Under the pieces are notes generated by a model. It was not told the origin of the DNA. It did no database searches and worked only from the letters and a program-made list of their open reading frames with translations. Positions 1-14,923 of a DNA stretch of 14,923 nt are shown here, one piece after another (position 1 is the first letter of the stretch; the number at the start of each line of letters is the position of its first letter). The DNA comes from Promethearchaeia archaeon. Its GTDB lineage: Archaea > Asgardarchaeota > Lokiarchaeia > Sigyniarchaeales > SOKP01. The stretch spans positions 1 to 14,923 of the forward strand of contig JAHQWH010000217.1 of the NCBI GenBank assembly GCA_029856105.1, written 5' to 3'. The position numbers were made by a program, and so were the translations under genes.

Positions 1-254
1 CCAGAAGCTCTAATTGCAGGGTCTAATACATCGTCGATTACGGTTTTAACGACTCCCGCAGCACCAATTAAGTCAGGCAGAAAAATATCTTCATTCTCAA
101 ATTGAGATCCTATATATTTCATGAGATTACCAATAATTTCCAAGAGTTCTTCCGCAGACGCTTCTTGGTTTTCTAAAACTGAACGACATAGGTTTTTTAA
201 ACCAGTCTCATCCCATTCTTCAACAAGTTCTTTCACTTGTTCTTCTAATGACAT
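1..254 (-). CDS. Corrinoid (cobalamin-binding) methyl-carrier protein, MttC/MtbC-like; N-terminal cap domain only, truncated by the window edge
   Basis: Not in the ORF track. Manual translation from ATG 254: MSLEEQVKELVEEWDETGLKNLCRSVLENQEASAEELLEIIGNLMKYIGSQFENEDIFLPDLIGAAGVVKTVIDDVLDPAIRAS. M..IG..FE...IFLPDL..AA is the B12-binding cap signature. A GAGGAG SD-like motif lies just upstream on the minus strand, and the gene is divergent from an MttB homologue. Confidence 0.88.
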   Translation of the reverse strand, partial: MSLEEQVKELVEEWDETGLKNLCRSVLENQEASAEELLEIIGNLMKYIGSQFENEDIFLPDLIGAAGVVKTVIDDVLDPAIRAS

Positions 255-390
255 TTTGACTCCTCTGAATAATAGAATTTAAAATAAAGTTATTAGTTAT
301 TTACTAACCTTTATGAAAAAAAAAGTTTTTCAAAAAGTAGATAAATTAATGGTTTCTAGAACTAAAATATTGAAATAATATCTTTTTAAA

Positions 391-404
391 AGAGAATTTA
401 AATA
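391..404 (+). promoter_or_regulatory. Putative archaeal BRE/TATA promoter of the mttB-lyase operon
   Basis: Purine-rich AGAGAA followed by TTTAAATA (397-404), ending 22 nt before ATG 427. This spacing fits a leaderless transcript. The AT-rich background lowers confidence. Confidence 0.45.
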
Positions 405-426
405 TCTTATCTGGTTTGAAATTATA

Positions 427-1935
427 ATGAGAATGAATCAACTTGAAGTTTTAGCGAAGGATGAAATTGAACTTATACATCAAAACACGATAGAACTATT
501 AGAAACTATTGGCGTTAAAATAGATTCTATCGAAGCTAGGGATCTTTTAATTGACAATGGAGCAGAATTTGATAAAAATACTAAATATATAAAATTTCCT
601 GAAAGCCTTGTAAAAGAGACCATGAAAGTCGTACCCGATTCTTTCAGTCTATGGGGTCCGGATGGTTCTTTTAAGTTTGATGTAAATACATCTAGTACAA
701 AATTTGCTACCGTTGGTACACCCGTTAGAATGTACGACCCCGAGAAAAAAACCGGTGTGCGAAAATCTTCGCTTGAAGATACTATAAGTCAAATTCGGAT
801 CGTCGATAGTTTAAAAAACATCGTATGTTCACACTTAGATGTGTGGCCGAACGATGTACCCTATACGGAAACTCATTATCACAGTATACGCGCTTGGGCA
901 GAACATAGTTTCAAACCCTTTGGATTAGGGTGTTATGGGAGGGTTGCAAGCAAAGATATGATGGTTATGACTTCAATTATCGCTGGCGGTGTAGATGAAC
1001 TAAAAAAAAGACCAAGGTTAATTGGCTTTTTTAACCCAACAAGTCCACTAATGCTTACTAAAATTATGTTAAATGGCTTATTCGTTTTTGCAAAATACAA
1101 GCAGCCAATTATTATTGCATCTGCGGCTAGTGCTGGAGCGACTGCACCAGTAACTTTAGCGGGCTTGTTAATACAAACAAATATGGAAGTCTTATCTTCA
1201 ATTGTTCTTACTGAACTTATTAATCCTGGAACGCCTGTCTTTTATTCGACAATGAATTGCCCTATGGACCCTCCCAGCGGGAACGTTGCTTGGGGTTCAA
1301 TAGAAACTGGCTTAATAACCGCAGCTGCGGCTCAGTTAGCCCGCTTCTATAAAATCCCGTCTAGAGGTCCGGGAGCAGTTACAGAATCAAAATGTTTTGA
1401 TGTTCAAAACGGATTTGAAAGATTTATGACACTTTTCTTCGCTACACAGGCGGGAATAAATTACATTACTTGCGCGGGAACCTACGAATCTTCGTTAGCA
1501 GAAGCATTAGAATTACTCGTTATTGATGATGAATTAATTGATATGATCAATCATGGGATGAATGGAATTAGATTTAACGAGGAAACCCTCGCTATAAATG
1601 AAATTAAAAGGGTAGCGACAGAGGGGAAGAATTATATGATGTTAAAACACACATCAAAAAATACTAGGAAAGAAATATTTGTCCCAAAATTAGCAGATAG
1701 AGATAAGAGAGGGATTTGGAGAAGGAATGGATCAAAAGATATCATCGTGAGAGCTAAAGAAAAAGTTAATTTGATACTTGAAAAACAAGTGGGCCCCGGA
1801 ATTGCTCCAGAAGTTGATAAGGAACTAAAAAAGTACTTTAAAATTATAGCATCCCGCACTATGGATGAATTTCGAAAAGTCGAAGGGTTAGATGAATCTG
1901 AGGATCCTCAAAAAATTATTGATTTGGAGGGATAA
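427..1935 (+). CDS. mttB: Trimethylamine methyltransferase (MttB) superfamily corrinoid methyltransferase, non-pyrrolysine type
   Basis: 502 aa with MttB family motifs: IH..T.ELLETIGVK, NPTSPL, GATAPVTLAG.L.Q.N.EVL, PGTPVFY, QLARFYKIPSR, SK.FDVQ.GFE, LVIDDE. No in-frame TAG. Confidence 0.92.
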   Translation: MRMNQLEVLAKDEIELIHQNTIELLETIGVKIDSIEARDLLIDNGAEFDKNTKYIKFPESLVKETMKVVPDSFSLWGPDGSFKFDVNTSSTKFATVGTPVRMYDPEKKTGVRKSSLEDTISQIRIVDSLKNIVCSHLDVWPNDVPYTETHYHSIRAWAEHSFKPFGLGCYGRVASKDMMVMTSIIAGGVDELKKRPRLIGFFNPTSPLMLTKIMLNGLFVFAKYKQPIIIASAASAGATAPVTLAGLLIQTNMEVLSSIVLTELINPGTPVFYSTMNCPMDPPSGNVAWGSIETGLITAAAAQLARFYKIPSRGPGAVTESKCFDVQNGFERFMTLFFATQAGINYITCAGTYESSLAEALELLVIDDELIDMINHGMNGIRFNEETLAINEIKRVATEGKNYMMLKHTSKNTRKEIFVPKLADRDKRGIWRRNGSKDIIVRAKEKVNLILEKQVGPGIAPEVDKELKKYFKIIASRTMDEFRKVEGLDESEDPQKIIDLEG

Positions 1936-1937
1936 AG

Positions 1938-3212
1938 ATGGCAGAAAAAAAACCACAAGATCAAATCAATAAAGAATTAAGAGAAAAGTGGGATGAGCTA
2001 GAATTCGATTCACAACTAATTAGAGCTGGAGAAGATCCATACCCTAGCACTACTCATAGTTTACGCGTACCCTTATATGCGACTAAATCCTACGTATATT
2101 CCTCCTTAACAGAGCTTTTAAAGCACCATTACTTTTATTCAAGAACAGAAAACCCTACATTGTTTGCTTTGGATAAGAAACTCGCAACATTGCATGGAGG
2201 AGAAGATGCTATATCCGTTGCTTCTGGGATGGCAGCAGTTCATCTTGCTTGTTCGAGCGTCCTCCAAAAACGGATTAAGAGAGTCAAACCAAAAAATTTA
2301 TCCAAACATTTCCCTCAAAGTAAACCAGATCATATTCCAAACTTTATTATACATAAAAACCAATACACAGGAACATATCGCCTTTTTACAAATGTATACC
2401 CACAAATGGGATACGAACCGAGAATAATAGATATGCGGGATTTAAACGCTGTCAAAAAGGCTATTGACGAACAGACTAAATTTGTATATGTTGAGACACC
2501 AGCAAATCCCACAATTGATGTGATAAACATTCAGAAGTGCGCTGAACTTATTCACGAAATAGGAGGAAAATGTATTGTGGATAACACATTCGCAAGTCCA
2601 GCTTTACAGAAACCATTAGAATTAGGTGCTGATTTAGTAATTGAAAGTTTAACTAAATACATTAATGGCCACGGTGATTGCCTTGGTGGGGCAATAATTG
2701 GCCCTAAAAACGAATTACAAAATATTCGATATTTCTGGTTAGAGACTCAAGGAGCCGTTTTAAGTCCGTTTAACGCTTGGCTCATTTTACGCGGATGCAG
2801 AACTCTTAGTTTGCGAATGAAAAGACATAGTTCAAGCGCAATAAAAATAGCAGAATTCTTAAGTAAACATCCAAAAGTGACAAATGTTGTTTACCCGGGA
2901 TTAGAATCAGATTTGGGACACGAGATTGCTAAAAAACAAATGATGGATTTTGGGGGCATGATTGGCTTCGAATTGAAGTCGATGGATGCTAGTTATAAGT
3001 TTATCGATTTATTAAAACTAATCAAAGTCGGAGTATCGTTAGGAGACACGACTTCTTTAATTGAATATACGGCTGTTATGACGGGAATCGATCTAGCTTC
3101 TTGGGAAAAACGAACTATGGGAATGTCTGATACTCACTTTAGATTTTCGATCGGTTTAGAAGATCCTAGCGATTTGATCAGGGATTTGGAGCAAGCTTTA
3201 AAAAATTCATAA
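1938..3212 (+). CDS. PLP-dependent Cys/Met metabolism enzyme (methionine gamma-lyase / cystathionine gamma-synthase/lyase family)
   Basis: Motifs YSR.ENPT, ASGMAA, ETPANPT, VDNTFASP, SLTKYINGHGD (PLP lysine), RG.RTL.LRM, YPGL, FGGMI.FEL, VSLGD, RFSIGLED. Starts 2 nt after the mttB stop, with GGAGG at 1926-1930. Confidence 0.93.
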   Translation: MAEKKPQDQINKELREKWDELEFDSQLIRAGEDPYPSTTHSLRVPLYATKSYVYSSLTELLKHHYFYSRTENPTLFALDKKLATLHGGEDAISVASGMAAVHLACSSVLQKRIKRVKPKNLSKHFPQSKPDHIPNFIIHKNQYTGTYRLFTNVYPQMGYEPRIIDMRDLNAVKKAIDEQTKFVYVETPANPTIDVINIQKCAELIHEIGGKCIVDNTFASPALQKPLELGADLVIESLTKYINGHGDCLGGAIIGPKNELQNIRYFWLETQGAVLSPFNAWLILRGCRTLSLRMKRHSSSAIKIAEFLSKHPKVTNVVYPGLESDLGHEIAKKQMMDFGGMIGFELKSMDASYKFIDLLKLIKVGVSLGDTTSLIEYTAVMTGIDLASWEKRTMGMSDTHFRFSIGLEDPSDLIRDLEQALKNS

Positions 3213-3283
3213 GTAAATTTAAATTAAAATTTAAGCCTAAAATAAAAAAAAAGAATTTTAAAAAAATTTTATAGTTAATACAT

Positions 3284-4663
3284 TTAAGTAACTTTTTCTT
3301 TCTTCTGGTTATGAAGCTCCGTGATTTGTTGCTTAATATCATCAACTTTAGATTTTGAGAAGGGATAAAATTTTAAACAAATCAGGTTTAGACCTAGTGC
3401 AATGGCTGGGAACAAAAATACTAACAATCTAAGCCCAAAAATATTACTTGGATCAATAAGTTCGTAATCCCCCCAACCCGTCGCTGTGAATACGAGCCCT
3501 ACAGTTAAAATAGAAAGAACCATTGAAAGCCGCATGAAGAAATTTGTAATTCCAAAGAAGATTCCCTCGTGCCGTACACCCGTTTTTAACTCATCTTCGT
3601 CAATAACATCTGCAATAATCAAGTAAATGAAATACAACATACCTCCAAACCCAAAACCCATCAAGGATACTACAATTAATGCTATTTCGTATAACTCTAT
3701 AAATAACAATGGGATTGAAGCAACAAAATACGCGATAATTGAGATAAAATATCCTTTTTTGCTTCCAAGTTTAACATCTAACTTCCTCCAAATTATTACA
3801 GTAACAATTCCTACGATAAATAACAACCCTAACATTATCGATGTGAGAAATGTACTTTCTTGGCCTAGAACATGCAAACTATACAACGGTACGGTTGTTG
3901 CGAGCACCAGTAGGACATACTCATATAAGAAAAACATGAGTGTATAGAGTACAAAACCTTTGTTCTTTAAAGCATATTTTAATCCTCCAAAAAAGGAAAA
4001 AGCTTGTTTATAATCTTCTTTAAATTCTACACGTTCAACAGCACCCCATTTTAGAAAAATGAGCATTGTTAATCCTACGATTATTGATGTAACAATACCA
4101 TTTGTTAGGTAACCAGACATCACATTCAATTCTACAATGAAAAAACCTGGAACTAAGAAAGCTAATATCAACCCAACTGTAGATAAAACTTGTCTAATAG
4201 TATTTACTTGCGCCCGTTCTTCTACAGTCGTATACAATTCAGGAAACAATGAATCTGAAGGTAAGGCCAGCATAGTATAGAAGGTATCATAACATATAAG
4301 CATAATAAGAAGATAGATAAAGCCTAACATTTGATTACCAACAGGGGGTAACCATAAGATTATCTCAATTATAAGAACAGGTATTAATCCAATCATTATA
4401 TATGGTTTTCGTCGACCCCAGCGAGAATGTGTACGATCTGAAAGGTAACCAATTAGAGGGTCATTTATTGCGTTCCAAAAGGTCCATAAAACATATGCTA
4501 ATATTATATACGGTATATCTAAGCCAACAGCGACATAGTAAAAAGAAAAAACCCATGTATTAAATGCACTATTAATAAAAAATAGTCCGAACGAAATTGA
4601 CCCAAAACTCCACTTTTGCAGCGTCCCAAATTCTTGAGTACTTTTATCTTTATTTTGATTCAT
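3284..4663 (-). CDS. MFS transporter, glycoside-pentoside-hexuronide (MelB-like) cation symporter family
   Basis: About 12 hydrophobic segments. Motifs WNAINDPLIGYLSDRT.SRWGRRKPY, ERAQVN..RQ and IADVIDEDELKTGVRHEG.FFG. Confidence 0.92.
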   Translation of the reverse strand: MNQNKDKSTQEFGTLQKWSFGSISFGLFFINSAFNTWVFSFYYVAVGLDIPYIILAYVLWTFWNAINDPLIGYLSDRTHSRWGRRKPYIMIGLIPVLIIEIILWLPPVGNQMLGFIYLLIMLICYDTFYTMLALPSDSLFPELYTTVEERAQVNTIRQVLSTVGLILAFLVPGFFIVELNVMSGYLTNGIVTSIIVGLTMLIFLKWGAVERVEFKEDYKQAFSFFGGLKYALKNKGFVLYTLMFFLYEYVLLVLATTVPLYSLHVLGQESTFLTSIMLGLLFIVGIVTVIIWRKLDVKLGSKKGYFISIIAYFVASIPLLFIELYEIALIVVSLMGFGFGGMLYFIYLIIADVIDEDELKTGVRHEGIFFGITNFFMRLSMVLSILTVGLVFTATGWGDYELIDPSNIFGLRLLVFLFPAIALGLNLICLKFYPFSKSKVDDIKQQITELHNQKKEKVT

Positions 4664-4895
4664 CTTTTTAAAACCAATAATTTAATTATTTAATTGTTTA
4701 TTTTTAAAATTTATATAAGGTATTAGATTCTTTCACATATAAAAATAAGCAATTTTAAACTATTTCTAAGTCAGATTATAAATAGAGATAAGTAGATTAT
4801 GGCAAAATTAAAATTTATTATTATAATTATATGTTTAATATTGCGGCATATCTCACTAAACTAAGAAAAATCAAATAGAAAAGGGATATCGCGCT

Positions 4896-5108
4896 TTACT
4901 CTCTAGAGTATTTCTCTATTATATAATTTTGCAAAGACCAAACATACTTTTCAAGATTTAGAATTAAAACTTTTTGTTGTATTTCTCTTAAGTATGGCAC
5001 GTCAAAACTTTCAAATAATCCTTTAAGGTGATCTATTGTGTTAAAAACTTCTACGATAATCTTCCAATCGCTCGCCCATTCTTTATCTTGAATTTCTAAT
5101 TGCTTCAT
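4896..5108 (-). CDS. Small hypothetical helical protein (70 aa)
   Basis: ATG-started ORF in intergenic space with protein-like amphipathic composition, co-oriented with its neighbours. Confidence 0.7.
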   Translation of the reverse strand: MKQLEIQDKEWASDWKIIVEVFNTIDHLKGLFESFDVPYLREIQQKVLILNLEKYVWSLQNYIIEKYSRE

Positions 5109-5240
5109 TTTATGAAATTGTTAAATCTTAATGTTTTTGAATTGAATTATAACTTCTTTATGAATCCTATAGTTACACCTATTAAAAAATGTTTAGATAT
5201 CTATGATTTAGTAATTTCAATATTTCGCGAAAGTTCTGAA

Positions 5241-6389
5241 TTATAAATACAATTGAAAGTTTTTTTCTACGATTTCTTTTGCGCCGCTGAATTCTGAAAC
5301 ATTAATTAACCGATTTATATCTTGAAGATCGGTTAGCTCATCCTCATATTTGCTATTAAATTCAATCGAAAATTTTAGCATAAGGTCTTCTATTATACTG
5401 TTTTTTTTATTAGTGATAACTACCAAAGCGTAACCATAGTCAATTTCATACCTAACAACGATATCCGTCTTTTTTGTTTGAATAACATCAATTCTATCTT
5501 TTTTGCCAATAAATTCGCTGAGGATATGATTAAGCCCTATAAGAATGTTTCCCCAGAGGGGTGATTCATCTTTATTATCTGATTTTTTATCGAAATTAAT
5601 AGAATATAGTAAGATGCCTGATTTGTGATAAATATTAATTGAATAAATTCTATTTGGTAAAACGAAAAACATCTCTGGTTTTTTAATTAGCATGATATTA
5701 ACGGCAAAGTTTGTTATCCAAATAAGAATTATGTATAACTCTCTAAAGACGGTCTGTTGTAATATTACATAATAAATATTCATTAATATAGGAATCGTAA
5801 AAACAATGGTATTTAATATTAAAGGCAAACTTTCTTCCTTTTTTTTTGATCTAATATTAATTATTAAAGCAATATAAAGATAATAAATCGTGATTAAACT
5901 TTGCAACAATATAATTATTGCTCCAGTTATAAAATTAAAGCGAAAGTTAATTAGAGCCGGATCTATAACAGAAAACAACGAAGGAGGGGGGATACTAAGA
6001 ATTAGTTCGATTGAATCTGGGGTTAGTAAAGCCCCAATCAACATGCCAAGAAGTAGCGCGTAGTACAAAAATGGAAAAGGTTTAATTTTTTTGTATTCGT
6101 TAAAAAAAGAATACACAAATGAAGATATTATTAGTGAAATAACCCCCGATACAAGTGATAGTTTCCAAAATAAAACGTTGATTTCATTTGATATGAAAAA
6201 AGTAACTGAAAAGACGAATAATGTTGAATAAATAATACCCCCAGTAAGAACTGTTGCCGCAAGCAAAAAAGCTATTAGTTCCGTTCCATATTTCTTTCGA
6301 TATCGGATAATGTGATATATTATTATAACACTTAAACATAATATAATAATATAACCAATGATGAGCGATATGGAAGTAGTATAATTCAT
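5241..6389 (-). CDS. 7-TM membrane protein with C-terminal longin-like cytoplasmic domain
   Basis: Seven hydrophobic segments in about the first 235 aa. Then IYSINIYHKSGILLYSINF...ILIGLNHILSEF...IDVIQ...IVVRY...YALVVIT...KFSIEF, which follows the beta-beta-alpha-beta-beta-beta-alpha-alpha longin pattern. Confidence 0.8.
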   Translation of the reverse strand: MNYTTSISLIIGYIIILCLSVIIIYHIIRYRKKYGTELIAFLLAATVLTGGIIYSTLFVFSVTFFISNEINVLFWKLSLVSGVISLIISSFVYSFFNEYKKIKPFPFLYYALLLGMLIGALLTPDSIELILSIPPPSLFSVIDPALINFRFNFITGAIIILLQSLITIYYLYIALIINIRSKKKEESLPLILNTIVFTIPILMNIYYVILQQTVFRELYIILIWITNFAVNIMLIKKPEMFFVLPNRIYSINIYHKSGILLYSINFDKKSDNKDESPLWGNILIGLNHILSEFIGKKDRIDVIQTKKTDIVVRYEIDYGYALVVITNKKNSIIEDLMLKFSIEFNSKYEDELTDLQDINRLINVSEFSGAKEIVEKNFQLYL

Positions 6390-6583
6390 AATTTATAATG
6401 GTTCAAAATTCAAACGAGAAAAACTATGAGATTTCTTGGAAATATCAAAAAATATTCTTATAAATAGAGAAGAATTATTGATTTTTAAGAATTACTGAAG
6501 GTTTTTCTAAAAAAATGTGAGAAAATCTTTTAAAAATGTAAATTACGAAATAATTCTGCGTAGAAATATAGACGTTTTACTTA

Positions 6584-7681
6584 TTATCCAGTTAAATAAT
6601 GGTTAAAATATTCTTCAATTAGATCGTAAGCATTTTTAAAAGTTGAAACATCAATTAGACCACTGAGTTTTTTTAAGTTTTCTTTATTGATTTCGGCAAA
6701 TTTCTTCGAAAAATTATCTACTGCGTTGTCGAGAATTTTATTTTTATGTTTTGCAATTAGTAAAACTGCGTAACCTAATTGGTTGTTATAGTTAAAAACA
6801 ACCGCTCGATCGCTCATCTTAATAAGGGTTATCTGATTTTCTACGTTCGATAAATTAGCTAAAATATGATTAATTCCAATTAGTATACTCCCTTTTAAAA
6901 GCGTTTCATCAATTTCTGATTGTTTTTCGAAATTAAAAGAATATAATAAGATGCCAGATTTATGGAAAATAATAAAATCGTATATTTTATTAGTGAAAAC
7001 TACAAATAAATCTGGTTTCTTAACTGCAAGAAAGACTACAAATCCCATAAAAATAACATAAAACATTAGATGTAGAATTTTAAAAAATGAATTTAGAGTT
7101 AGTATATAGAGAGTATACCATAAAATCTTTAAGAATAAGAGAAATACGAACAAGAAATAGAAATTACTTAACTTTCTGTCGTTAATCTCCTTGTATCCTT
7201 TTATTTGTGTAATCCAGGAAATAACTACAATAAACCCATTGAATAATACAATCGAAATTAATAAGGGAACGTTATTGAAAAAGTAATAGTACTCAGATCC
7301 CGTCTGGGTAACTAAAAACGAAACAGGATTGAACAATAAGCTAAGAATAATCCCTCCCATTAATATGTATATTATAACGGGTAAAAATCTAACTCGGCTT
7401 AATTTGTTTAATTCCATACTATGAACAGCAGACCATATCCCATTTGATATTATTCTAGTAAAAATGGATACACTCCATAATATCAAGGCTAAATTTATGT
7501 TAAAAAAGGTCTCGACTGATAGATTAAATAAAATAAAGTAAGCACTTTCACTGACGAAATATATCATAATTACAATAAAAAAATCTACTTCAGGCTTGTA
7601 ATCTCCTCTGTGAAATAATATATAAATTAGACCAATAGAACATACCGCAAAGTAAGCGGTAATAAATATGCTTGCAATCAT
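6584..7681 (-). CDS. 7-TM membrane protein with C-terminal longin-like domain (paralogue of 5241..6389)
   Basis: Seven hydrophobic segments, then KKPDLF...IYDFIIFHKSGILLYSFNF...ILIGINHIL...GYAVLLI...LIDVSTF, matching the neighbouring gene motif for motif. Confidence 0.8.
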   Translation of the reverse strand: MIASIFITAYFAVCSIGLIYILFHRGDYKPEVDFFIVIMIYFVSESAYFILFNLSVETFFNINLALILWSVSIFTRIISNGIWSAVHSMELNKLSRVRFLPVIIYILMGGIILSLLFNPVSFLVTQTGSEYYYFFNNVPLLISIVLFNGFIVVISWITQIKGYKEINDRKLSNFYFLFVFLLFLKILWYTLYILTLNSFFKILHLMFYVIFMGFVVFLAVKKPDLFVVFTNKIYDFIIFHKSGILLYSFNFEKQSEIDETLLKGSILIGINHILANLSNVENQITLIKMSDRAVVFNYNNQLGYAVLLIAKHKNKILDNAVDNFSKKFAEINKENLKKLSGLIDVSTFKNAYDLIEEYFNHYLTG

Positions 7682-7915
7682 TAATTTTAAGGGATTTCTT
7701 TATTATTTTTAATTTCTTCCTCTTGTGTCAAAGAAGATATTGAATAATTTTATATAAATATTGGTTCAACAACCTATAAGAAGTTTTATGTGAATGGTGA
7801 TTTCCATAATTTTAAAGAACTCTTAATTAAATATAAAACTTTATTCTGGTTAAATTAAATTGAAATATAATTTAATAAAATATAATTTGATTTATAATAC
7901 CTAAAACCGAACTTT

Positions 7916-9802
7916 ATGAGCGATTTTCAAAAATTCCTAATAGATAAGGGAATAATTTCAAACTTAAAAACTCGATATGAAATCGATTTAAAAGATAATG
8001 TAGTAAACGATTTCATCCATAATATAGCCAAAAATTTAATTAAGATTGAATCCAAAGAAATTCATGATTTGGATATCCTATCTAAATCTTACGAAAAGAT
8101 TATTCCCCATTCCCAAAGAAAAACAATGGGTGAGTTTTTCACTCCCATTCAAATCGTTGATTACATAATAAAGAGAGTTGGCTACACAGAACAGCAAGAT
8201 ATTGAAAATAAAAAATTAATAGATTTAAGTTGTGGTTTAGGGAGTTTTTTAATTAGAGCTGTAAAGGTTCTCTTAGAAAAATTGAGAAAGCAAATTAAAT
8301 CGAAAGAAAATTCAGAGTTAACTCCTAAACAAGCAAAGGAAATTATTAACAAAATTAAAGTGAATATCTCTGGTGTTGACATAAATCCAATTGCTTGTAT
8401 CTTATGCCAAATCAACTTTTACTATACGCTTTTTGAACTCATTAAAATTATTTTAAAAACAGATAAAGATTACCAAATACCCGTATTTAATATTTTCAAT
8501 AAAGATACTCTTCAATTAAATTTTAATAATAAATACGACTATGTAGTTGGAAATCCCCCATATTTATTTATCCGAGCGATTCCACATGATTATAAAAAAT
8601 TAATTGAAAAGCTCCCTTTGGAAACAAATAAGGGACAATTCGACTATTATCAACTGTTTACCGAAATAGGACTTCAAATATTAAAGCAAAATGGTTTACT
8701 TGGTTATATAATCCCTGATTCTCTACTCGCTCTATCAAATCGTAGAATTCTTAGAAAATATATATATGACTCAACTAAAATAAGGGAAATTTATTATTGC
8801 GGTCCGCAATTCGATGAACCCGTCGTTTCAAATATTATACTTGTTTTAGAAAAAGAATCAGATGAAATAAAGAGGAAAAATAATCAAATCATATTAAAAT
8901 TTCCATTAGATCAATCTCAAGATGATAATGTAATTTTTCAAAATGTAATTGAAAAATGGAATTATCGATTTCTAATCAATTTAAATGACCAGGATAGAGA
9001 AATTATCGAGTTTTTGAATATAAATTTTCCAGAATTAAATGATTTAAATGTTAATCCAAATTTTAAAATTGATATATGGAGGGGCGTTGAATTAGGTAAA
9101 AGTGGAAATGTCATATTCTGTAATACTTGTAATAAATATTTTCCTCTTCCAAAAAATAATTATATTTGCAAAGAATGTAAATCAGAATTAAACAATGATT
9201 CTATAGAAAGCATAATAGTAAAAAGTACTAAAGGCGATTTAAAAAAAAATTATAAACCATTTCTCTATTCTATTAATCGATACCAAGTTAAAGATTTAAA
9301 ATATATTGATACAACTAAACAAGGCATTAATTACAAGGAGTTAAATCGCTACGCAAATCGCGTAATAGTAAGACAATTAGCACAAAATAGCTTAATATGT
9401 GCTACTTATGATAAGGGTTCATTGACTTCACAATCACTTTACAACTTAAAAATAATTAAATCTCCTATTAGAGAATTTAATAATTATTACCTTCTAGGGC
9501 TTTTAAATTCGCAATTATTAGCGTTTTACTTTATTAAATCATTTGGCTCTTATAAAAAACTATTCCCAAGGATTCTTATAGAGAATTTAAAAAGGTTGCC
9601 TATAGTAGTTCCTGAAAGCGATATTGAAAAGAAGCTTTCAAGAGAAATTATAATACTCGTTAAAACCATCTTGAAATTAGATAAATTTGATACAGAACAC
9701 TATACTAATTTACAAAATAAAATTAATTCACTTGTTTTCGATCTTTATCGGATAACAAATGAGCAATGTAATTATATATCTGAAGTTTTGAAGAATTTAT
9801 GA
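7916..9802 (+). CDS. N6-adenine DNA methyltransferase, gamma class (TaqI/Eco57I-like) with C-terminal target-recognition domain
   Basis: GEFFTP (motif X), DLSCGLGSFL (motif I), GVDINP, VVGNPPY (motif IV), G.LGYIIPDS. The C-terminus has YLLGLLNS and LKRLPI. No recognisable nuclease domain. Confidence 0.9.
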   Translation: MSDFQKFLIDKGIISNLKTRYEIDLKDNVVNDFIHNIAKNLIKIESKEIHDLDILSKSYEKIIPHSQRKTMGEFFTPIQIVDYIIKRVGYTEQQDIENKKLIDLSCGLGSFLIRAVKVLLEKLRKQIKSKENSELTPKQAKEIINKIKVNISGVDINPIACILCQINFYYTLFELIKIILKTDKDYQIPVFNIFNKDTLQLNFNNKYDYVVGNPPYLFIRAIPHDYKKLIEKLPLETNKGQFDYYQLFTEIGLQILKQNGLLGYIIPDSLLALSNRRILRKYIYDSTKIREIYYCGPQFDEPVVSNIILVLEKESDEIKRKNNQIILKFPLDQSQDDNVIFQNVIEKWNYRFLINLNDQDREIIEFLNINFPELNDLNVNPNFKIDIWRGVELGKSGNVIFCNTCNKYFPLPKNNYICKECKSELNNDSIESIIVKSTKGDLKKNYKPFLYSINRYQVKDLKYIDTTKQGINYKELNRYANRVIVRQLAQNSLICATYDKGSLTSQSLYNLKIIKSPIREFNNYYLLGLLNSQLLAFYFIKSFGSYKKLFPRILIENLKRLPIVVPESDIEKKLSREIIILVKTILKLDKFDTEHYTNLQNKINSLVFDLYRITNEQCNYISEVLKNL

Positions 9803-9862
9803 TCGTTCAAGCTTCGATAAAATTTGATAGATATTTGAATTGAGTAATTAAGAAAACGATTA

Positions 9863-10015
9863 TTAAACTATTTCTTTTTTTGCTACATATGTTTTCAAAA
9901 TTCTGTCCCATTTTTCGGCCAGATCAGTTAGCCCAGTTTTTTTAAAGAGATCAACAGCTCTAAATAAAATTTTTTCAATTTGCTTATCTTCAATCAAGTC
10001 GTTATTCAAATGCAT
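9863..10015 (-). CDS. 50-aa microprotein, paralogue B (likely start ATG 10015 rather than 10045)
   Basis: MHLNNDLIEDKQIEKILFRAVDLFKKTGLTDLAEKWDRILKTYVAKKEIV. Similarity to the upstream 50-aa ORF supports coding status and the shorter start. Confidence 0.75.
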   Translation of the reverse strand: MHLNNDLIEDKQIEKILFRAVDLFKKTGLTDLAEKWDRILKTYVAKKEIV

Positions 10016-10156
10016 ATTGTCTATCATAAAAAATAAAAGAAACATATCGAATAAAAAAAAGAATAATATTGTGATATAACTCTGAAAATATCGTTTTTGG
10101 AATAAAACGAGAGAACTTCCTTAAGAATCGACAAAAAATAATTCTGAACCATTTAA

Positions 10157-10309
10157 TTATTTTCGTAATGTTTTTGCTTTGTCGTAGTTCTTTAGAACTT
10201 GTTCTCCTTTTTTTGATAGGTCAGTAAGATCTGTTTGTTTGCATAGAGAAACTATACGACCTAGAATTTTTGCAATGTTTTCCTCGTGCTTTAAAAAATT
10301 TTCTTCCAT
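10157..10309 (-). CDS. 50-aa microprotein, paralogue A (not in the ORF track)
   Basis: Manual translation: MEENFLKHEENIAKILGRIVSLCKQTDLTDLSKKGEQVLKNYDKAKTLRK. It shares 19 of 39 identical residues, ungapped, with the 9863..10015 product. Confidence 0.75.
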   Translation of the reverse strand: MEENFLKHEENIAKILGRIVSLCKQTDLTDLSKKGEQVLKNYDKAKTLRK

Positions 10310-10457
10310 ACTACAAAAATCAATGCAAATTTAAAAATAAATAAGTTTATGTCATGGAGATACTCAGAGTTTAGAAATAACTTCTTGTAACAATTTTCTA
10401 ATAGCTATATTTATATTTTTTAAATCTAATATAATTTTAAGAAAACTACCAACAAAG

Positions 10458-11444
10458 TTGAATTCTATGGAAGGTCTGCCCAATATCGATTTAATTCAGT
10501 CATTATTAGAAAATTACATGTTCGATGTAGATGGTGCCGCAGCGGTGGCAATTTGCGATAGAGACGGTTTTATCATCGCCTCAGAAAGTAAAGAGAAAGG
10601 AAGTCACGAATCAGATTTAGTAATTGGAGCAATTTCAGCATTTCTTGATATCTACATTGATAGAATTAAAAGCGAATATAAAACCCAGAGCAATTTTTTT
10701 AATATAACCTCAATGCAAGATAAAAAATTTGCGTATTGTTCCATGGGACCACATTGCATATTGACTACGATCGCTGATCCAACTACGTCGAATACAGAAC
10801 TAAGGATTTATTCGGAATATATTGCCGGTAAGGTTGAATTGATTCTTGATGGTTTCGATAATGTATCTACAGATATACCCGAAATTATCCGTGTTTTATC
10901 AACAAGAAGAGAAGGTAAGCTACCGAAGGGTCAATTTACGGCAAAACTCATTCTAAATGGCGATTTTAAAGTTGGAAAAACATCTTTAATTAAGAGATTT
11001 GTCGAAAATAATTTCAGTGAAACATATATCTCAACGATTGGCGTTGAGATTTCTAAGAAATCCGTTGTAATGGACGAAGATACAAGCATTAATTTCGTCC
11101 TATGGGATATTGGAGGTCAAATAGGCTCAATGGCACCTTATAGACAGAGATTTTACGAAGGAGCAAGCGCAGCTTTCATAGTGATTGATAGAACCCGTCC
11201 AAATAATCTAGAAAGCGTTAAGACATGGTATAAGGACATCAAAACTTCTGTATCGAGAGATATACCCGTCGTGATAGTTGGAAATAAATCGGATTTACAA
11301 GAAGAGGTCGTAATTAGCGAAGAAGAGATAAAGGTTGTTGCTAAACAATTAGGTTTTCACCACATTTTAACTTCTGCCCGAACAGGCGAAAATGTCAACG
11401 AGGCTTTCCTTTATATTGCCTACAGATTTATTGAAAAAGCGTAG
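10458..11444 (+). CDS. Roadblock/LC7-domain + Ras-superfamily (Rab-like) small GTPase fusion
   Basis: The N-terminus has a roadblock pattern (DVDGAAAVAICDRDGFIIAS...LVIGAISA). The C-terminus has G1 GDFKVGKT, G2 YISTIGVE, G3 WDIGGQ, G4 NKSD and G5 TSART. Start is either TTG 10458 or ATG 10467. Confidence 0.92.
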   Translation: MNSMEGLPNIDLIQSLLENYMFDVDGAAAVAICDRDGFIIASESKEKGSHESDLVIGAISAFLDIYIDRIKSEYKTQSNFFNITSMQDKKFAYCSMGPHCILTTIADPTTSNTELRIYSEYIAGKVELILDGFDNVSTDIPEIIRVLSTRREGKLPKGQFTAKLILNGDFKVGKTSLIKRFVENNFSETYISTIGVEISKKSVVMDEDTSINFVLWDIGGQIGSMAPYRQRFYEGASAAFIVIDRTRPNNLESVKTWYKDIKTSVSRDIPVVIVGNKSDLQEEVVISEEEIKVVAKQLGFHHILTSARTGENVNEAFLYIAYRFIEKA

Positions 11445-11509
11445 ATTAATCGATAGAAACTTTTTTAATTTTCACACATATTCTTATTATTGTAAGATTA
11501 GCATCAAGT

Positions 11510-12481
11510 TTGTTAAATATTTGTATAGAAATAAATAAAGGAGGTTATAAAAAAATAGTATTAAAGGTTTTATTCAACGACATTTTGGCGACTTGAAATC
11601 AATCAGGCTATTTAATGGGGTTTTCGATAAAAGAATTGACATACCAAGGAAAATATTTGCTATTTTTGACAGAACAGCAGTTTGCCGGGCCATGGTTCAG
11701 TTTTAAATTGATAGGTGAAAAAATTGGCACTATTCCTGTTGTGTTAAAAAATATTGAGCCAACGCCGATCTATAAAATGGTAAACAGCCGGACCGGAACT
11801 GTGATCGACCGTATAACACTAGATTTTGACATAAAAGAATACTTAAAAATATTAATAAGAGAAAAGAAAATTCAACCGATTACATTTAAAAAAGAAAATT
11901 CTTCGATACGGTTATATATCGACGTCTTTAATCGTCCAAAAGTCCCTTACGTCAACACATTTTTCACGTTAAAGAATATTTCCGATTTCAGCTTAATTGA
12001 CTTCTCGATGTACTTTGTGTTTGACTTTGACATCAACGGATTAGAAGGTTTCGATAACGACTTATCTGGTTATGACGAGGAAAACGATATACTTTACCAA
12101 TACGACCATACAAGCTTATATGCTGGCTTTTCTCCTATATCAAAATCGACGAATTACGAAACTTGTTTAACCAAAGACTTTAAAATTAATAACGAAAGAT
12201 TAAATCTGTCAAATACTTTACACATAGAGGCTGGAGAAATCTTATCGGCTTTGCAAATTGAATTCAAAACTCTAAAACCAGACCAATCGTTTCAAACGGC
12301 CCTAACTATTTCTGGAGCTTTAAAAAAAGAAGAATTAATTGAAAACATTAACGAAGGTAAAAATAACGCGATGAAATTTTTGTCGCAAGTAAACAGATCG
12401 GTAAAATCAGAGCAAAGAAACATACAAGAAGAAGCTTTCATAAAAATCAATCTCCAAAAAGCAGTTGATTGTAACGAATAA
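11510..12481 (+). CDS. Candidate selenoprotein (in-frame UGA at 11594-11596) with a beta-supersandwich-like body; the ORF track calls only 11615..12481
   Basis: The 288-aa body is clearly coding. The same frame is open from 11450 to 11593, has one TGA, then six sense codons into ATG 11615, giving ...KKIVLKVLFNDILAT-U-NQSGYLMGFSIKEL. A SECIS-like hairpin follows the stop codon. The start is uncertain: TTG 11510, or ATA 11555 downstream of AAGGAGGT. Confidence 0.7.
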
Positions 12482-12558
12482 GTCCTATATAATGATTCAA
12501 ATAAAAAAGTCCGATTAGGGAAGTTATTTGATGAATGCTCCGCGAGAGTTGGGATTTA
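12479..12558 (+). ncRNA. Eukaryote-type SECIS-like element (cis-acting 3'-UTR RNA structure)
   Basis: AUGAU at 12492-12496 faces UGAA at 12532-12535, forming a tandem G.A core. A perfect 8-bp stem pairs UCAAAUAA (12497-12504) with UUAUUUGA (12524-12531). Unpaired AAAA lies at 12505-12508, followed by an apical UCC/GGA mini-stem. A 9-bp basal helix pairs 12479-12487 with 12550-12558. Confidence 0.72.
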
Positions 12559-12619
12559 CTATAATTAAATTAATGATTATTGAATTTATTTAAGGATAGA
12601 TATTCGATGTTTGACTATA

Positions 12620-13693
12620 TCAATTATTTTTTTGCTCTAATTCAAATTTACTATAATTTACAGTAAATTTATTACCATTTTTGCTATAATTTTTTATGGA
12701 AAATAATAAGAATTCAATTTCTTGTTTTGTAATAACTGGAAACTTATAGTTATTCGCTTGATATTTAGGTTCCTTTCCTGATTTCTTATAACTTTCTATA
12801 AATTCAATATGACTTTTAATTCGGTTACTGTTAATCGATTGAGTGGTACTTTTTAGTTCTTTAAGATTGAGTTTAAAGCCCTCTAAAAATTCAGAATTAA
12901 TCTCGTACCCTATAGAATTTCTCCCAGATACCATCGCAGCGAGAGTAGTTGTACCTGTCCCCCAAAAAGGATCTAAAACTGTGTCTCCATAAATAGAGAA
13001 CATATTAATCAATCTATATGGCAACTTTAAAGGAAATGCTGCTGATCGTTCTCTTATTTTTTTTTTATTTTCATTTGTATTATTCAATTTTTGGGACATC
13101 CCTCTAATATCTACCCACAAATCTGAAAACCATTTATTTCTTTCTTCCCAAAAATAAGCGCTATTATATCTATGTTCAAACCCAGGAGGTAGCTTTCTTT
13201 TTTTATCCCCTTTTCTAAAAATTAATATATATTCGTGTTCAAGGGTTATGTATGCATTTGTTGGCAACATACCTGATCCTAAGAATTTAGTAGGGCTATT
13301 TGTTGGTTTTCTCCATAGAATGCATGGTAAAACTATAAATCCATTGTTTTGAAAAAAAGTAGTTATTCTAACGTGGTTAGTAAATAGTTGAAAATTTTTA
13401 TCAATATTTCTTGTAGCATCTCCAACATTGATACATACAATTCCCCCCGGTTTCACCACTCTCACAACTTCATTCCAAATCTTTTCTAATTCTTCATGCA
13501 TAAGATTAAAAGCGTTAATACCGTCTCCCTCTTGAAGGGATTGTTTTATATCTTCGTTTAGAGTTGAAAATAATGCATCCCACATTTCTATCATAGGGTA
13601 AGGGGGCGAAGTTATTACCAAATCAACTGTGTCTGATTTTACTTCGCTCATATCAGAAGAATTCTTAAAAAAAAATTTGTGAACAGTTTCCAT
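12620..13693 (-). CDS. N4-cytosine DNA methyltransferase, beta class, MthZI/Zim-like (likely start ATG 13693; ORF track gives 13720)
   Basis: DLVITSPPYPMIEMWD (motif IV) precedes VLDPFWGTGTT (motif I). Blocks KFLGSGMLP.NAYITLEHEYILIFRK and SAYFWEERN.WFSD.W resemble, from memory, the archaeal CTAG-specific M.MthZI family. Confidence 0.88.
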   Translation of the reverse strand: METVHKFFFKNSSDMSEVKSDTVDLVITSPPYPMIEMWDALFSTLNEDIKQSLQEGDGINAFNLMHEELEKIWNEVVRVVKPGGIVCINVGDATRNIDKNFQLFTNHVRITTFFQNNGFIVLPCILWRKPTNSPTKFLGSGMLPTNAYITLEHEYILIFRKGDKKRKLPPGFEHRYNSAYFWEERNKWFSDLWVDIRGMSQKLNNTNENKKKIRERSAAFPLKLPYRLINMFSIYGDTVLDPFWGTGTTTLAAMVSGRNSIGYEINSEFLEGFKLNLKELKSTTQSINSNRIKSHIEFIESYKKSGKEPKYQANNYKFPVITKQEIEFLLFSIKNYSKNGNKFTVNYSKFELEQKNN

Positions 13694-13760
13694 TGTCAAA
13701 TTATAGTCTTCAATATGCATTTTGTTGCATATAATTAGCTCTTCGGATTTATTAAAACTT

Positions 13761-14861
13761 TTAGTCCTCGATTTGCAAAAAATAACCTACAATACGCAAC
13801 TTATTATTAAAGCGATTTAATTCTGTAATAATTCCTTTGAGTCCCTTGGCATCGTGAACTACTGTTTTATCAAAAAGAATCTTAACAATTCCACTCTTAC
13901 CGGGAGTTAATTCTTGACCTTCAATAAATTTGAGAGGAGATAATTTTAAGCCTACTAAACCGTAATACTGAACTCCGTCGCCTGGTTTTATTGATCCCTC
14001 TTTGGGCGCATAATATTGATTTATAAAAACCTTAGCTTTTATTTCATGTTCTTGTTTAAAAACTCCAGGACTAACTAAAAGATTATCTCGACTAAGATCG
14101 TTTGGTGAAATATTCCCCTTTAAGGCAAGGCCGACTCTATCGCCCTCGTAGGCAACTTTAAAGGTTCTATCGTGTTTCTGTATGCTTCGAATTATTACCT
14201 TTTTTACTGCTGCTTCGTAACCTACTATTTCGAGCATTTGACCAATTTGAACCTTTCCTTGCTTTACTATTCCAAGTATCACCGTTCCTATACCCTTAAC
14301 GGGAAATACATGATCAATGAGTATCTTAGTATTATCTTCGGAATTTGGCTCTTTTTCCAGAAGTTCAAAGCCAAGATCTATAATTTTCTTCTTTAAATTT
14401 TCGTAATCCTCTTTAATTTTTAACTCGAATATTTCAGTATCGTTCAAACTGGTGCTCTTCAAAATTGTTTCGAGCTTCTTTCTTACCTCAGGCAGCCTCC
14501 ACTCCGTTTTCGAATTTATCCCAGCTATTACTATTAAAGTTTTAGTTTTAAAGAGTTGGTAAAATAAATCCATCCCTACTAAGATTTCTCCAATAGAAGC
14601 ATTTAACCCCGCATTTAAGTCTATAACAAGAATATGAATATTAGATATAACTAGAGTTTGTAAAAGCGGTTTAATTTTTTCGGGATAGTCGATTGGTGTT
14701 AACCCACAAAACACTTGATTTAGGCTTACATCCAAACGATTGTAAAATAGAATATCTGACTTTGTTCCGGGGGAACCTAACGCTTGCCCTATTAGATTAT
14801 TAATATCAAAATTATCCCCTAAGATTCCCACAATAAAATTTCTTTCAATTGCTTCACTCAT
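13761..14861 (-). CDS. Archaeal SelB-like protein (aSelBL / SelB-II): degenerate G domain plus EF-Tu-like domains II and III
   Basis: Domain II signature IDHVFPVKGIGTVILG.VKQG...IRSIQKHD.....A..GDRVGLALK. The N-terminus LGSPGTKSDI.FY...YPEKIKPLLQ lacks canonical GHxDxGKT, DxPG and NKxD motifs. At 366 aa it has no SelB domain IV. Confidence 0.85.
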   Translation of the reverse strand: MSEAIERNFIVGILGDNFDINNLIGQALGSPGTKSDILFYNRLDVSLNQVFCGLTPIDYPEKIKPLLQTLVISNIHILVIDLNAGLNASIGEILVGMDLFYQLFKTKTLIVIAGINSKTEWRLPEVRKKLETILKSTSLNDTEIFELKIKEDYENLKKKIIDLGFELLEKEPNSEDNTKILIDHVFPVKGIGTVILGIVKQGKVQIGQMLEIVGYEAAVKKVIIRSIQKHDRTFKVAYEGDRVGLALKGNISPNDLSRDNLLVSPGVFKQEHEIKAKVFINQYYAPKEGSIKPGDGVQYYGLVGLKLSPLKFIEGQELTPGKSGIVKILFDKTVVHDAKGLKGIITELNRFNNKLRIVGYFLQIED

Positions 14862-14923
14862 TTGTCTTATTAAATATTTTAAACATCAAAAACTTTTTGG
14901 AATCACGCTTGAATAAAAGTAAC

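Follow-up and report, generated by a model that had tools for sequence, protein, structure and literature searches.

Five selenoprotein families were described in Lokiarchaeia by Mariotti in 2016 (PMC4989117), HdrA, Prx, and MvhD were found by Sun in 2021 (PMC9723677), and the largest survey, that of Huang in 2024 (PMC11227280), arrived at seven families in Asgard archaea by a homology-based search on known families. A 2026 review lists 11 archaeal selenoprotein families (PMC13188914). The Lokiarchaeial genes for SelD/SPS, HdrA, VhuD/FrhD, VhuU/FrhA, and PrxL (PMC4989117, PMC11227280) share one grammar: an in-frame UGA is followed, within about 12 nt of the stop codon, by a selenocysteine insertion sequence (SECIS) with AUGA, helix II, a run of adenines, and GA. 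No SBP2 is known in archaea (PMC4989117). We describe here a gene at positions 11555–12481 of the forward strand of contig JAHQWH010000217.1, positions 1 to 14,923 of which were analysed (the window), in a Lokiarchaeial (Promethearchaeota) metagenome-assembled genome (MAG). Sequence comparison makes it very probable that this gene encodes a 308-residue selenoprotein, with selenocysteine (Sec) at position 14, and that the protein represents a genuine new family whose recoding relies on the SECIS mechanism already known from Lokiarchaeia.

The gene follows the same grammar as the Lokiarchaeial selenoprotein genes named above, and the Sec machinery is the same. It differs from them in that the protein has no sequence relation to theirs, is not a thioredoxin-fold, iron–sulfur, or hydrogenase protein, and appears to have a non-AUG start. 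The initial annotation of this stretch of DNA had proposed that the protein is unlike known archaeal selenoproteins, and this was borne out. No Pfam or NCBIfam match was obtained for the 308-residue form or for the 288-residue form of current gene calls, nor any match in a PDB profile search. The family corresponds to none of the 11 listed archaeal families, which include SelD, HdrA, FrhA/VhuU, FrhD/VhuD, FdhA, Fwd, PrxL, AhpF-N, and DsbA-like (PMC13188914), and we found no published report of it (PMC4989117, PMC11227280, PMC9723677, PMC13188914).

The source genome is called G000 here; C numbers are its contigs, and L numbers are individual loci. The Lokiarchaeial family that holds the source genome (13 genera sampled) is denoted f1, its sister family f2, and two other families f3 and f4, while g14 is one genus of f1. 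The Lokiarchaeial origin of the window is also read from database source names and from a roadblock-Ras GTPase, a non-Pyl MttB, and other genes. Two six-frame searches were performed, one on 40 relatives, including 24 genomes of the same genus, and one with a CxxU homologue as the query on 150 genomes of the order, 131 of them in f1. The loci inspected were 46 in 13 genera of f1, seven Cys loci in f2, and three CxxU loci in f4. A protein alignment was made of 30 sequences, including the U, CxxU, and Cys forms. The features of the gene are as follows.

11540–11545, + strand: Shine-Dalgarno sequence GGAGGU, 9 nt before the start, with no variation at any of its 6 bases in 20/20 aligned loci of the genus.
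11555–11557, + strand: putative non-AUG start codon AUA; ATA is invariant in the genus and aligns with the ATG of the Cys homologues.
11555–12481, + strand: corrected coding sequence (CDS), 308 codons and a stop, with Sec predicted at codon 14, from the alignment to homologues and an AlphaFold model with a mean predicted local distance difference test (pLDDT) of 90.3.
11594–11596, + strand: UGA, the predicted Sec codon (residue 14), invariant in 46/46 f1 loci and aligned to Cys (CxxC) and U (CxxU).
11615–11617, + strand: ATG at which gene calls begin, in fact the codon of Met21; g14 and the Cys homologues have Phe there.
12470–12472, + strand: near-invariant C-terminal Cys306, candidate partner of Sec14, found in 90% or more of the 30-sequence alignment, Cys and CxxU forms among them.
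12479–12481, + strand: stop codon TAA.

The gene was found in 22 of the 24 genomes of the same genus, and every match has one TGA, with the homology beginning upstream of it. In the larger search, it is present in 120 of the 131 f1 genomes, across 13 genera, and nearly all of the matches span exactly one TGA, so that about 110 six-frame matches in f1 run across a single TGA. Nine f1 matches without a stop begin downstream of the site, and the one of these that was inspected, L091, has the TGA. The initial annotation, whose coordinates all proved right, had placed the in-frame TGA at 11594–11596, seven codons before the ATG at 11615, and the homology that it asked for across this codon is seen both in the six-frame matches and in the translated loci. 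Translation of the 46 f1 loci gave the constant pattern K-I-V-L-K-V-x-F-N-x-x-x-A-x-U-N-x-x-G-Y-L-M-G-F, where the residue after U is N or D. The variability at the three codon positions is 0.12/0.04/0.28 for the 12 codons before the TGA, 0.15/0.05/0.41 for the six codons from the TGA to the annotated ATG, and 0.13/0.09/0.38 for the CDS after that ATG. Upstream of the ribosome-binding site, the values are 0.41/0.47/0.33, with no periodicity. The third-position wobble is seen in codons 2–13 and 15–20. Judged by these substitution patterns, both sides of the UGA are coding. Contigs from RNA libraries of close relatives run through 11492–11637 and 11400–11627 with the TGA unchanged, which is weak evidence, since DNA carry-over is possible; these contigs give no cover over 12425–12600, the SECIS region.

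The orthologues thus far described carry TGA, and the homologues of the sister family carry Cys codons (TGY) in the same column. The f2 homologues are only 22–29% identical, and three of them come from single-contig genomes; they have uninterrupted open reading frames (ORFs), which begin M-x9-C-x-x-C-(K/Q)-x-K-G-Y, and the second Cys aligns to the UGA. A third form, C-x-x-U with TGA, is found in families f4 and f3 and in genus g14 of f1. The C/U column is invariant in the alignment of 30 sequences. Sec14 stands second in this CxxC/CxxU motif, which is ancestral. All of the f2 and f4 genomes encode SepSecS, and therefore the Cys form is not a consequence of the loss of the Sec trait.

Where does translation begin? 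The spacing at the N-terminus matches exactly between the Cys homologues, M-x12-C, and the UGA form, I-x12-U. We infer that translation starts at AUA 11555, so that the protein has 308 residues and Sec is residue 14, because GGAGGT and ATA are invariant in the genus, stops upstream are frequent, and in the alignment the ATG of the Cys homologues falls precisely on this codon. In other genera, GGAGGU or GGUGA precedes the start, and the codon aligned to AUA 11555 is ATG in L070, TTG in L033, ATC in L085, and ATT in L034 and L088. In g14, the stretch between the Shine-Dalgarno sequence and the Sec codon holds no start codon, standard or near-cognate, apart from AAG/AGG in the codon before the aligned one. 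The initial annotation had pointed to a frame open for 48 codons, back to TAA 11447–11449. The frame is indeed open in the source genome, but it is not conserved; 15 of 20 members of the genus have in-frame stops within it, nine of them with a stop only two codons before ATA 11555. The estimate of a roughly 1% chance for such an open frame is irrelevant, since its first approximately 35 codons are not conserved. A TTG start near 11510, also suggested there, had to be rejected, as most orthologues have in-frame stops, and the extension is 13 codons from AUA 11555 rather than at least 27. The part of the proposed peptide read as LNICIEINKGGYKK is not protein, and the 'GG' in it is the Shine-Dalgarno GGAGGU read as codons.

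The suspicion that gene callers truncate the gene is supported. It is currently annotated as a 288-residue hypothetical protein, and the 120 listed homologues (of 386 found) have 260–289 residues and cover only the part after Met21. The likely cause is the combination of an AUA start with a UGA inside the frame, at codon 14, and the entries in the databases thus appear to be mis-started.

The 3′-untranslated region (3′-UTR) contains a hairpin with the following parts, all on the same strand as the gene.

12479–12558, + strand: eukaryote-like type II SECIS, from the minimum free energy (MFE) fold, pairing and covariation, and the independent model R2 described below.
12479–12487 with 12550–12558, + strand: helix I, which includes the stop codon.
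12492–12495 and 12533–12534, + strand: core, AUGA and GA, with 10 nt between the stop and AUGA.
12497–12504 with 12524–12531, + strand: helix II, 8 bp, from the MFE fold.
12505–12508, + strand: unpaired run of adenines.
12510–12512 with 12519–12521, + strand: ministem, with compensatory changes in both of its pairs.
12537–12540 with 12546–12549, + strand: side hairpin on the 3′ strand, between the core and helix I.

The AUGA…GA core that had been noticed after the stop codon is thus part of a covarying hairpin. The MFE fold of 12476–12562 gives this structure, and the layout, with a stop-containing lower helix, AUGA, an 8-bp helix II, the A-run, the ministem, U-GA, and the side hairpin, is common to the 3′-UTRs of all f1 loci. 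Of the core bases, only the first A of AUGA and the A of the 3′ GA vary among 23 sequences of the genus, each being kept in at least 90% of them; the other four, UGA and the G of GA, never change. Minor variants of the core occur in other genera. For these 23 sequences, 92.5% of the cells pair, compared with 25–49% for slid controls. For the 46 sequences of 13 genera, in an alignment fitted to the model, which favours pairing, the value is 94.2%, compared with at most 57% for slid controls, and there are compensatory changes in 17 of the 21 pairs.

Two covariance models were used, R1, made from the SECIS of this family, and R2, made from six other SECIS elements of G000 without the candidate. 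R1 finds the SECIS in 46/46 UGA loci of f1, in 0/7 Cys loci, and in 0/3 f4 loci, so within f1 the hairpin is kept with TGA, and the Cys copies lack it, as the initial annotation had suggested should be checked. When R1 was used to scan the whole genome, it matched only its own locus, being too family-specific, and it was replaced by a pattern scan and R2. A regular-expression scan of G000 gave 36 SECIS-like matches. Where such a match follows a TGA-containing ORF at a distance of 1–12 nt, the ORF is that of PrxL, of one of three FlpD/VhuD genes, or of SelD. The training set of R2 consists of PrxL, the three FlpD/VhuD genes, and two UGA-containing ORFs without identity, on C122 and C190. This model, trained as proposed on Lokiarchaeial elements, gives a single significant match in the window, at 12486–12540, with 24.1 bits and E = 5.5e-4, and the next match has 11 bits. 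The R2 elements sit 1–12 nt after stop codons, as does the candidate SECIS. The side hairpin and lower helix are also present in five of the six R2 elements (PrxL, two VhuD, and the C122 and C190 ORFs), and VhuD_C11 did not align; therefore, this geometry is normal for the genome rather than atypical.

The element shares with eukaryotic type II SECIS the AUGA…GA core with a flanking U·U pair, the 8-bp helix II, the unpaired adenines, the apical ministem, and the place in the 3′-UTR. It differs in that the Rfam models do not match it, helix I takes in the stop codon, and the 3′ strand carries an additional hairpin after the core, before helix I closes. Within G000, type I is seen at PrxL and VhuD, whereas the new element is type II with a ministem, a type otherwise found in this genome at SelD.

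Two further groups of hairpins were seen. At C122:1120–1323 (+) and C190 near 1673 (−), loci L047 and L050, there are near-identical canonical SECIS elements after short TGA-containing ORFs. The upstream ORFs of C122 and C190 have no Pfam match, and one of them is a 67-residue frame interrupted by one TGA. Possible identities are VhuU-type subunits or further selenoproteins that have gone unrecognised. In the three f4 loci, L064:1400–1503 (−), L065:1385–1485 (−), and L066:2431–2530 (+), the sequence CCCAAG-UAGCC-CUUGGG forms a common hairpin some 15 nt past the stop codon. Elsewhere in the f4 genomes, this motif shows no enrichment, and it may be a different recoding signal.

Could the TGA nevertheless be a true stop, with the 13 codons as an upstream ORF or leader, a 288-residue product translated from ATG 11615, and the hairpin as a terminator or stability element? 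This ATG is invariant within the genus and is chosen by all public gene calls among the matches listed, and re-initiation 18 nt past a stop is mechanistically possible. However, residues 15–20 show coding periodicity, and G18 and G22 are invariant and Y19 nearly so in the 30 sequences, including the homologues with 22–29% identity and continuous ORFs; residues 18 and 19 fall between the UGA and the annotated ATG. The first 13 residues can be aligned with the beginning of the Cys homologues. Met at position 21 is found in only part of f1, and g14, like the Cys forms, has Phe there. Furthermore, the hairpin has the SECIS AUGA/GA core, the A-run, and the ministem, and it is recognised by a model trained on the SECIS elements of other genes. 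We consider termination at the TGA highly improbable.

The Sec machinery, which the initial annotation wished to see confirmed, is all encoded in the genome. SepSecS lies on contig C16, adjoined by a tRNA-Sec with anticodon UCA, which was found by blastn with a tRNA-Sec of the genus. Aragorn and a genome search with RF01852 missed the tRNA-Sec of G000 because of two intron-like inserts. In this gene, on C16 (L037:2895–3036, −), the inserts are about 30 nt each and interrupt the D-arm and the T-loop, respectively, and the acceptor stem covaries between the inserted and uninterrupted forms; the inserts are probably two introns at non-canonical positions. In 13 of the 31 genomes of the genus, an uninterrupted 89-nt tRNA-Sec passes the Rfam threshold. 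An EFSec-like factor of the EF-Tu family, the best SelB match, is encoded 5 kb from SepSecS and tRNA-Sec, and a gene for a KTI12/PSTK-like kinase is present; the PSTK and EFSec matches are below the NCBIfam equivalog cut-offs, and they are the best in the genome, with the right domains. There are two Sec-type SelD genes, both with an in-frame TGA. TGA terminates 168 of 1470 long ORFs, and therefore it is not reassigned genome-wide.

An AlphaFold model of the protein, calculated from the alignment of 30 sequences, has the mean pLDDT given above and a predicted template modelling score (pTM) of 0.89. It matches the N-terminal β-supersandwich of GH15, GH94, and GH116 enzymes, with VIA Z of 18.5–19.9 and a root-mean-square deviation of 2.4–3.2 Å over 212–236 of the 308 residues; the Foldseek match to those domains has E = 4e-8. 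The structures matched are the N-terminal domains of GH15 glucoamylase/glucodextranase, GH94 phosphorylase, and GH116 (PDB 1lf6, 1ulv, 2cqs, 8rf9, 7w2t), and they have the same fold as the modelled protein. The new protein differs from the GH15 and GH94 proteins in having no detectable sequence similarity to them (no Pfam match and none in the PDB profile search) and no (α/α)6 catalytic domain. In the model, the β-supersandwich is followed by three C-terminal helices, and the protein ends at residue 308 without a catalytic barrel; it is thus predicted to be a stand-alone galactose-mutarotase-like β-supersandwich. We know of no GH15, GH94, or GH116 N-terminal domain with Sec or an N-terminal CxxC. 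Thirty-two clusters at 50% identity match the protein among 1.8 billion proteins, and its neighbours in the ESM Atlas are Asgard hypothetical proteins. No homologue outside the Asgard archaea was found in the protein-database, 1.8-billion-protein, and ESM Atlas searches.

What might be the function of Sec14? In the model, it is located where the second strand of the N-terminal β-hairpin ends, in a region of lower confidence. This differs from the thioredoxin-fold CxxU oxidoreductases, as the model is an all-β sandwich and Sec lies in a β-hairpin rather than at a helix N-terminus. Besides position 14, Cys306 is the only Cys shared by all forms, and for that reason our best guess from the alignment is that Sec14 and Cys306 form a redox pair. 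There is also a conserved Asp-rich motif, F-D-F-D-I-N-G-L-x-G-F-D-N-D.

The mechanism that we propose begins with the strong Shine-Dalgarno GGAGGU at 11540–11545, which would position the ribosome for initiation at the near-cognate AUA 11555. Thirteen codons on, UGA 11594 would be decoded as Sec by Sec-tRNA(Sec). The latter would be brought by the archaeal Sec elongation factor, itself recruited by the type II element in the 3′-UTR at 12479–12558, which has the UAA stop inside its lower helix. In the finished protein, Sec14 probably acts as a redox centre together with Cys306.

Several observations weigh against a Sec protein with this start and chemistry. The insertion of Sec is a prediction from the comparison of sequences. 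No Rfam SECIS family matched the window, or 12460–12580 at E up to 10, although Rfam holds no Lokiarchaeial SECIS model, and the CxxU homologues of f4 (three loci) have no Loki-type SECIS recognisable by R1 or R2. The putative AUA start is unusual; in g14 (L068, L075, L076, L079, L067), the position aligned to it is AGA or AGT, which is not a near-cognate codon. The source genus has lost the first Cys of CxxU, with Leu in its place (L-A-T-U), which rules out a CxxU redox mechanism of the classical kind in its unmodified form. The model is less confident around Sec14 (mean pLDDT 64 for residues 11–20) and at the C-terminus.

The first of these points, together with the f4 homologues, would also fit near-cognate decoding of the UGA, in which the ribosome reads through it by inserting one of the standard amino acids (Cys, Trp, or Arg) in place of Sec. 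Yet the SECIS strictly accompanies the UGA in f1 (46/46 loci), the genome has the full Sec machinery, the aligned residue of the homologues is Cys, the classical counterpart of Sec, and TGA works as a stop codon elsewhere in the genome. Such a readthrough is therefore very unlikely. That the TGA is a nonsense mutation, the mark of a pseudogene, or a sequencing or assembly error in the MAG has nothing more than the bare presence of a stop codon in its favour and is almost certainly wrong, being refuted by the same TGA in about 110 independent genomes of 13 genera, with flanking sequence under purifying selection. Half or more of the words sampled from this stretch also occur in about 13 metagenome runs of five or more studies, all of them DNA or probably so, a match that concerns the sampled words and not the TGA itself.

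Decoding of the UGA as Sec in a new family thus remains the reading that we prefer. Close parallels are the Asgard AhpF-N-terminal-like and DsbA-like selenoproteins (PMC11227280), which are likewise lineage-restricted, with Cys homologues in related Asgard archaea and eSECIS-like elements. However, those are rare (2–4 sequences), have a thioredoxin fold, and belong to known bacterial selenoprotein families, whereas the new family is present in 120/131 f1 genomes and was found only in Asgard archaea in the searches run. It would add a family to the seven Asgard and 11 archaeal selenoprotein families (PMC11227280, PMC13188914), and its prevalence in f1 is comparable with that reported for SelD. 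Homology-based counts of the Asgard selenoproteome would then be underestimates. If the start is as we place it, the gene also provides an example from nature of an archaeal AUA start that has been conserved. The approximately 46 covarying sequences enlarge the small set of Lokiarchaeial SECIS elements used in the debate on the origin of eukaryotic SECIS.

The genes around the selenoprotein gene are as follows.

10458–11444, + strand: roadblock-Ras-like GTPase gene, with Pfam Ras/Roc matches and a weak roadblock-type N-terminal match.
12620–13720, − strand: N6/N4 DNA methyltransferase gene, between the selenoprotein gene and the aSelBL gene in the source clade only.
13761–14861, − strand: aSelBL-type gene (SelB/EF-Tu-like), whose best NCBIfam match is selB at 84 bits, far below the cut-off.

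With few exceptions, the f1 and f2 loci have the GTPase gene immediately upstream, in the same orientation. The aSelBL gene is the convergent downstream neighbour in many f1 loci, and in L005, L015, L032, and L087, it is 128–160 nt away, with the SECIS falling in the short spacer between it and the selenoprotein gene. The methyltransferase gene looks like an insertion because other genera have a different methyltransferase or none at that place. One could imagine that the protein is a selenium- and redox-dependent partner or regulator of the neighbouring roadblock-Ras GTPase, in a proto-eukaryotic signalling module of Asgard archaea, that it perhaps exists in two forms, full-length with Sec when selenium is available and Sec-less from Met21 when recoding fails, and that aSelBL could help to decode this UGA. 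We regard this as unlikely. A complex prediction for the GTPase, as a single sequence, and the 288-residue part, with its alignment, gave no verdict (score 0.00). At the other end of the window, a non-Pyl MttB-family gene lies at 427–1935 (+), with a weak PYLIS_3 match at 1378–1477 (25.6 bits; gathering score 38) and no in-frame TAG, and a Cys/Met PLP lyase gene begins 2 nt after its stop.

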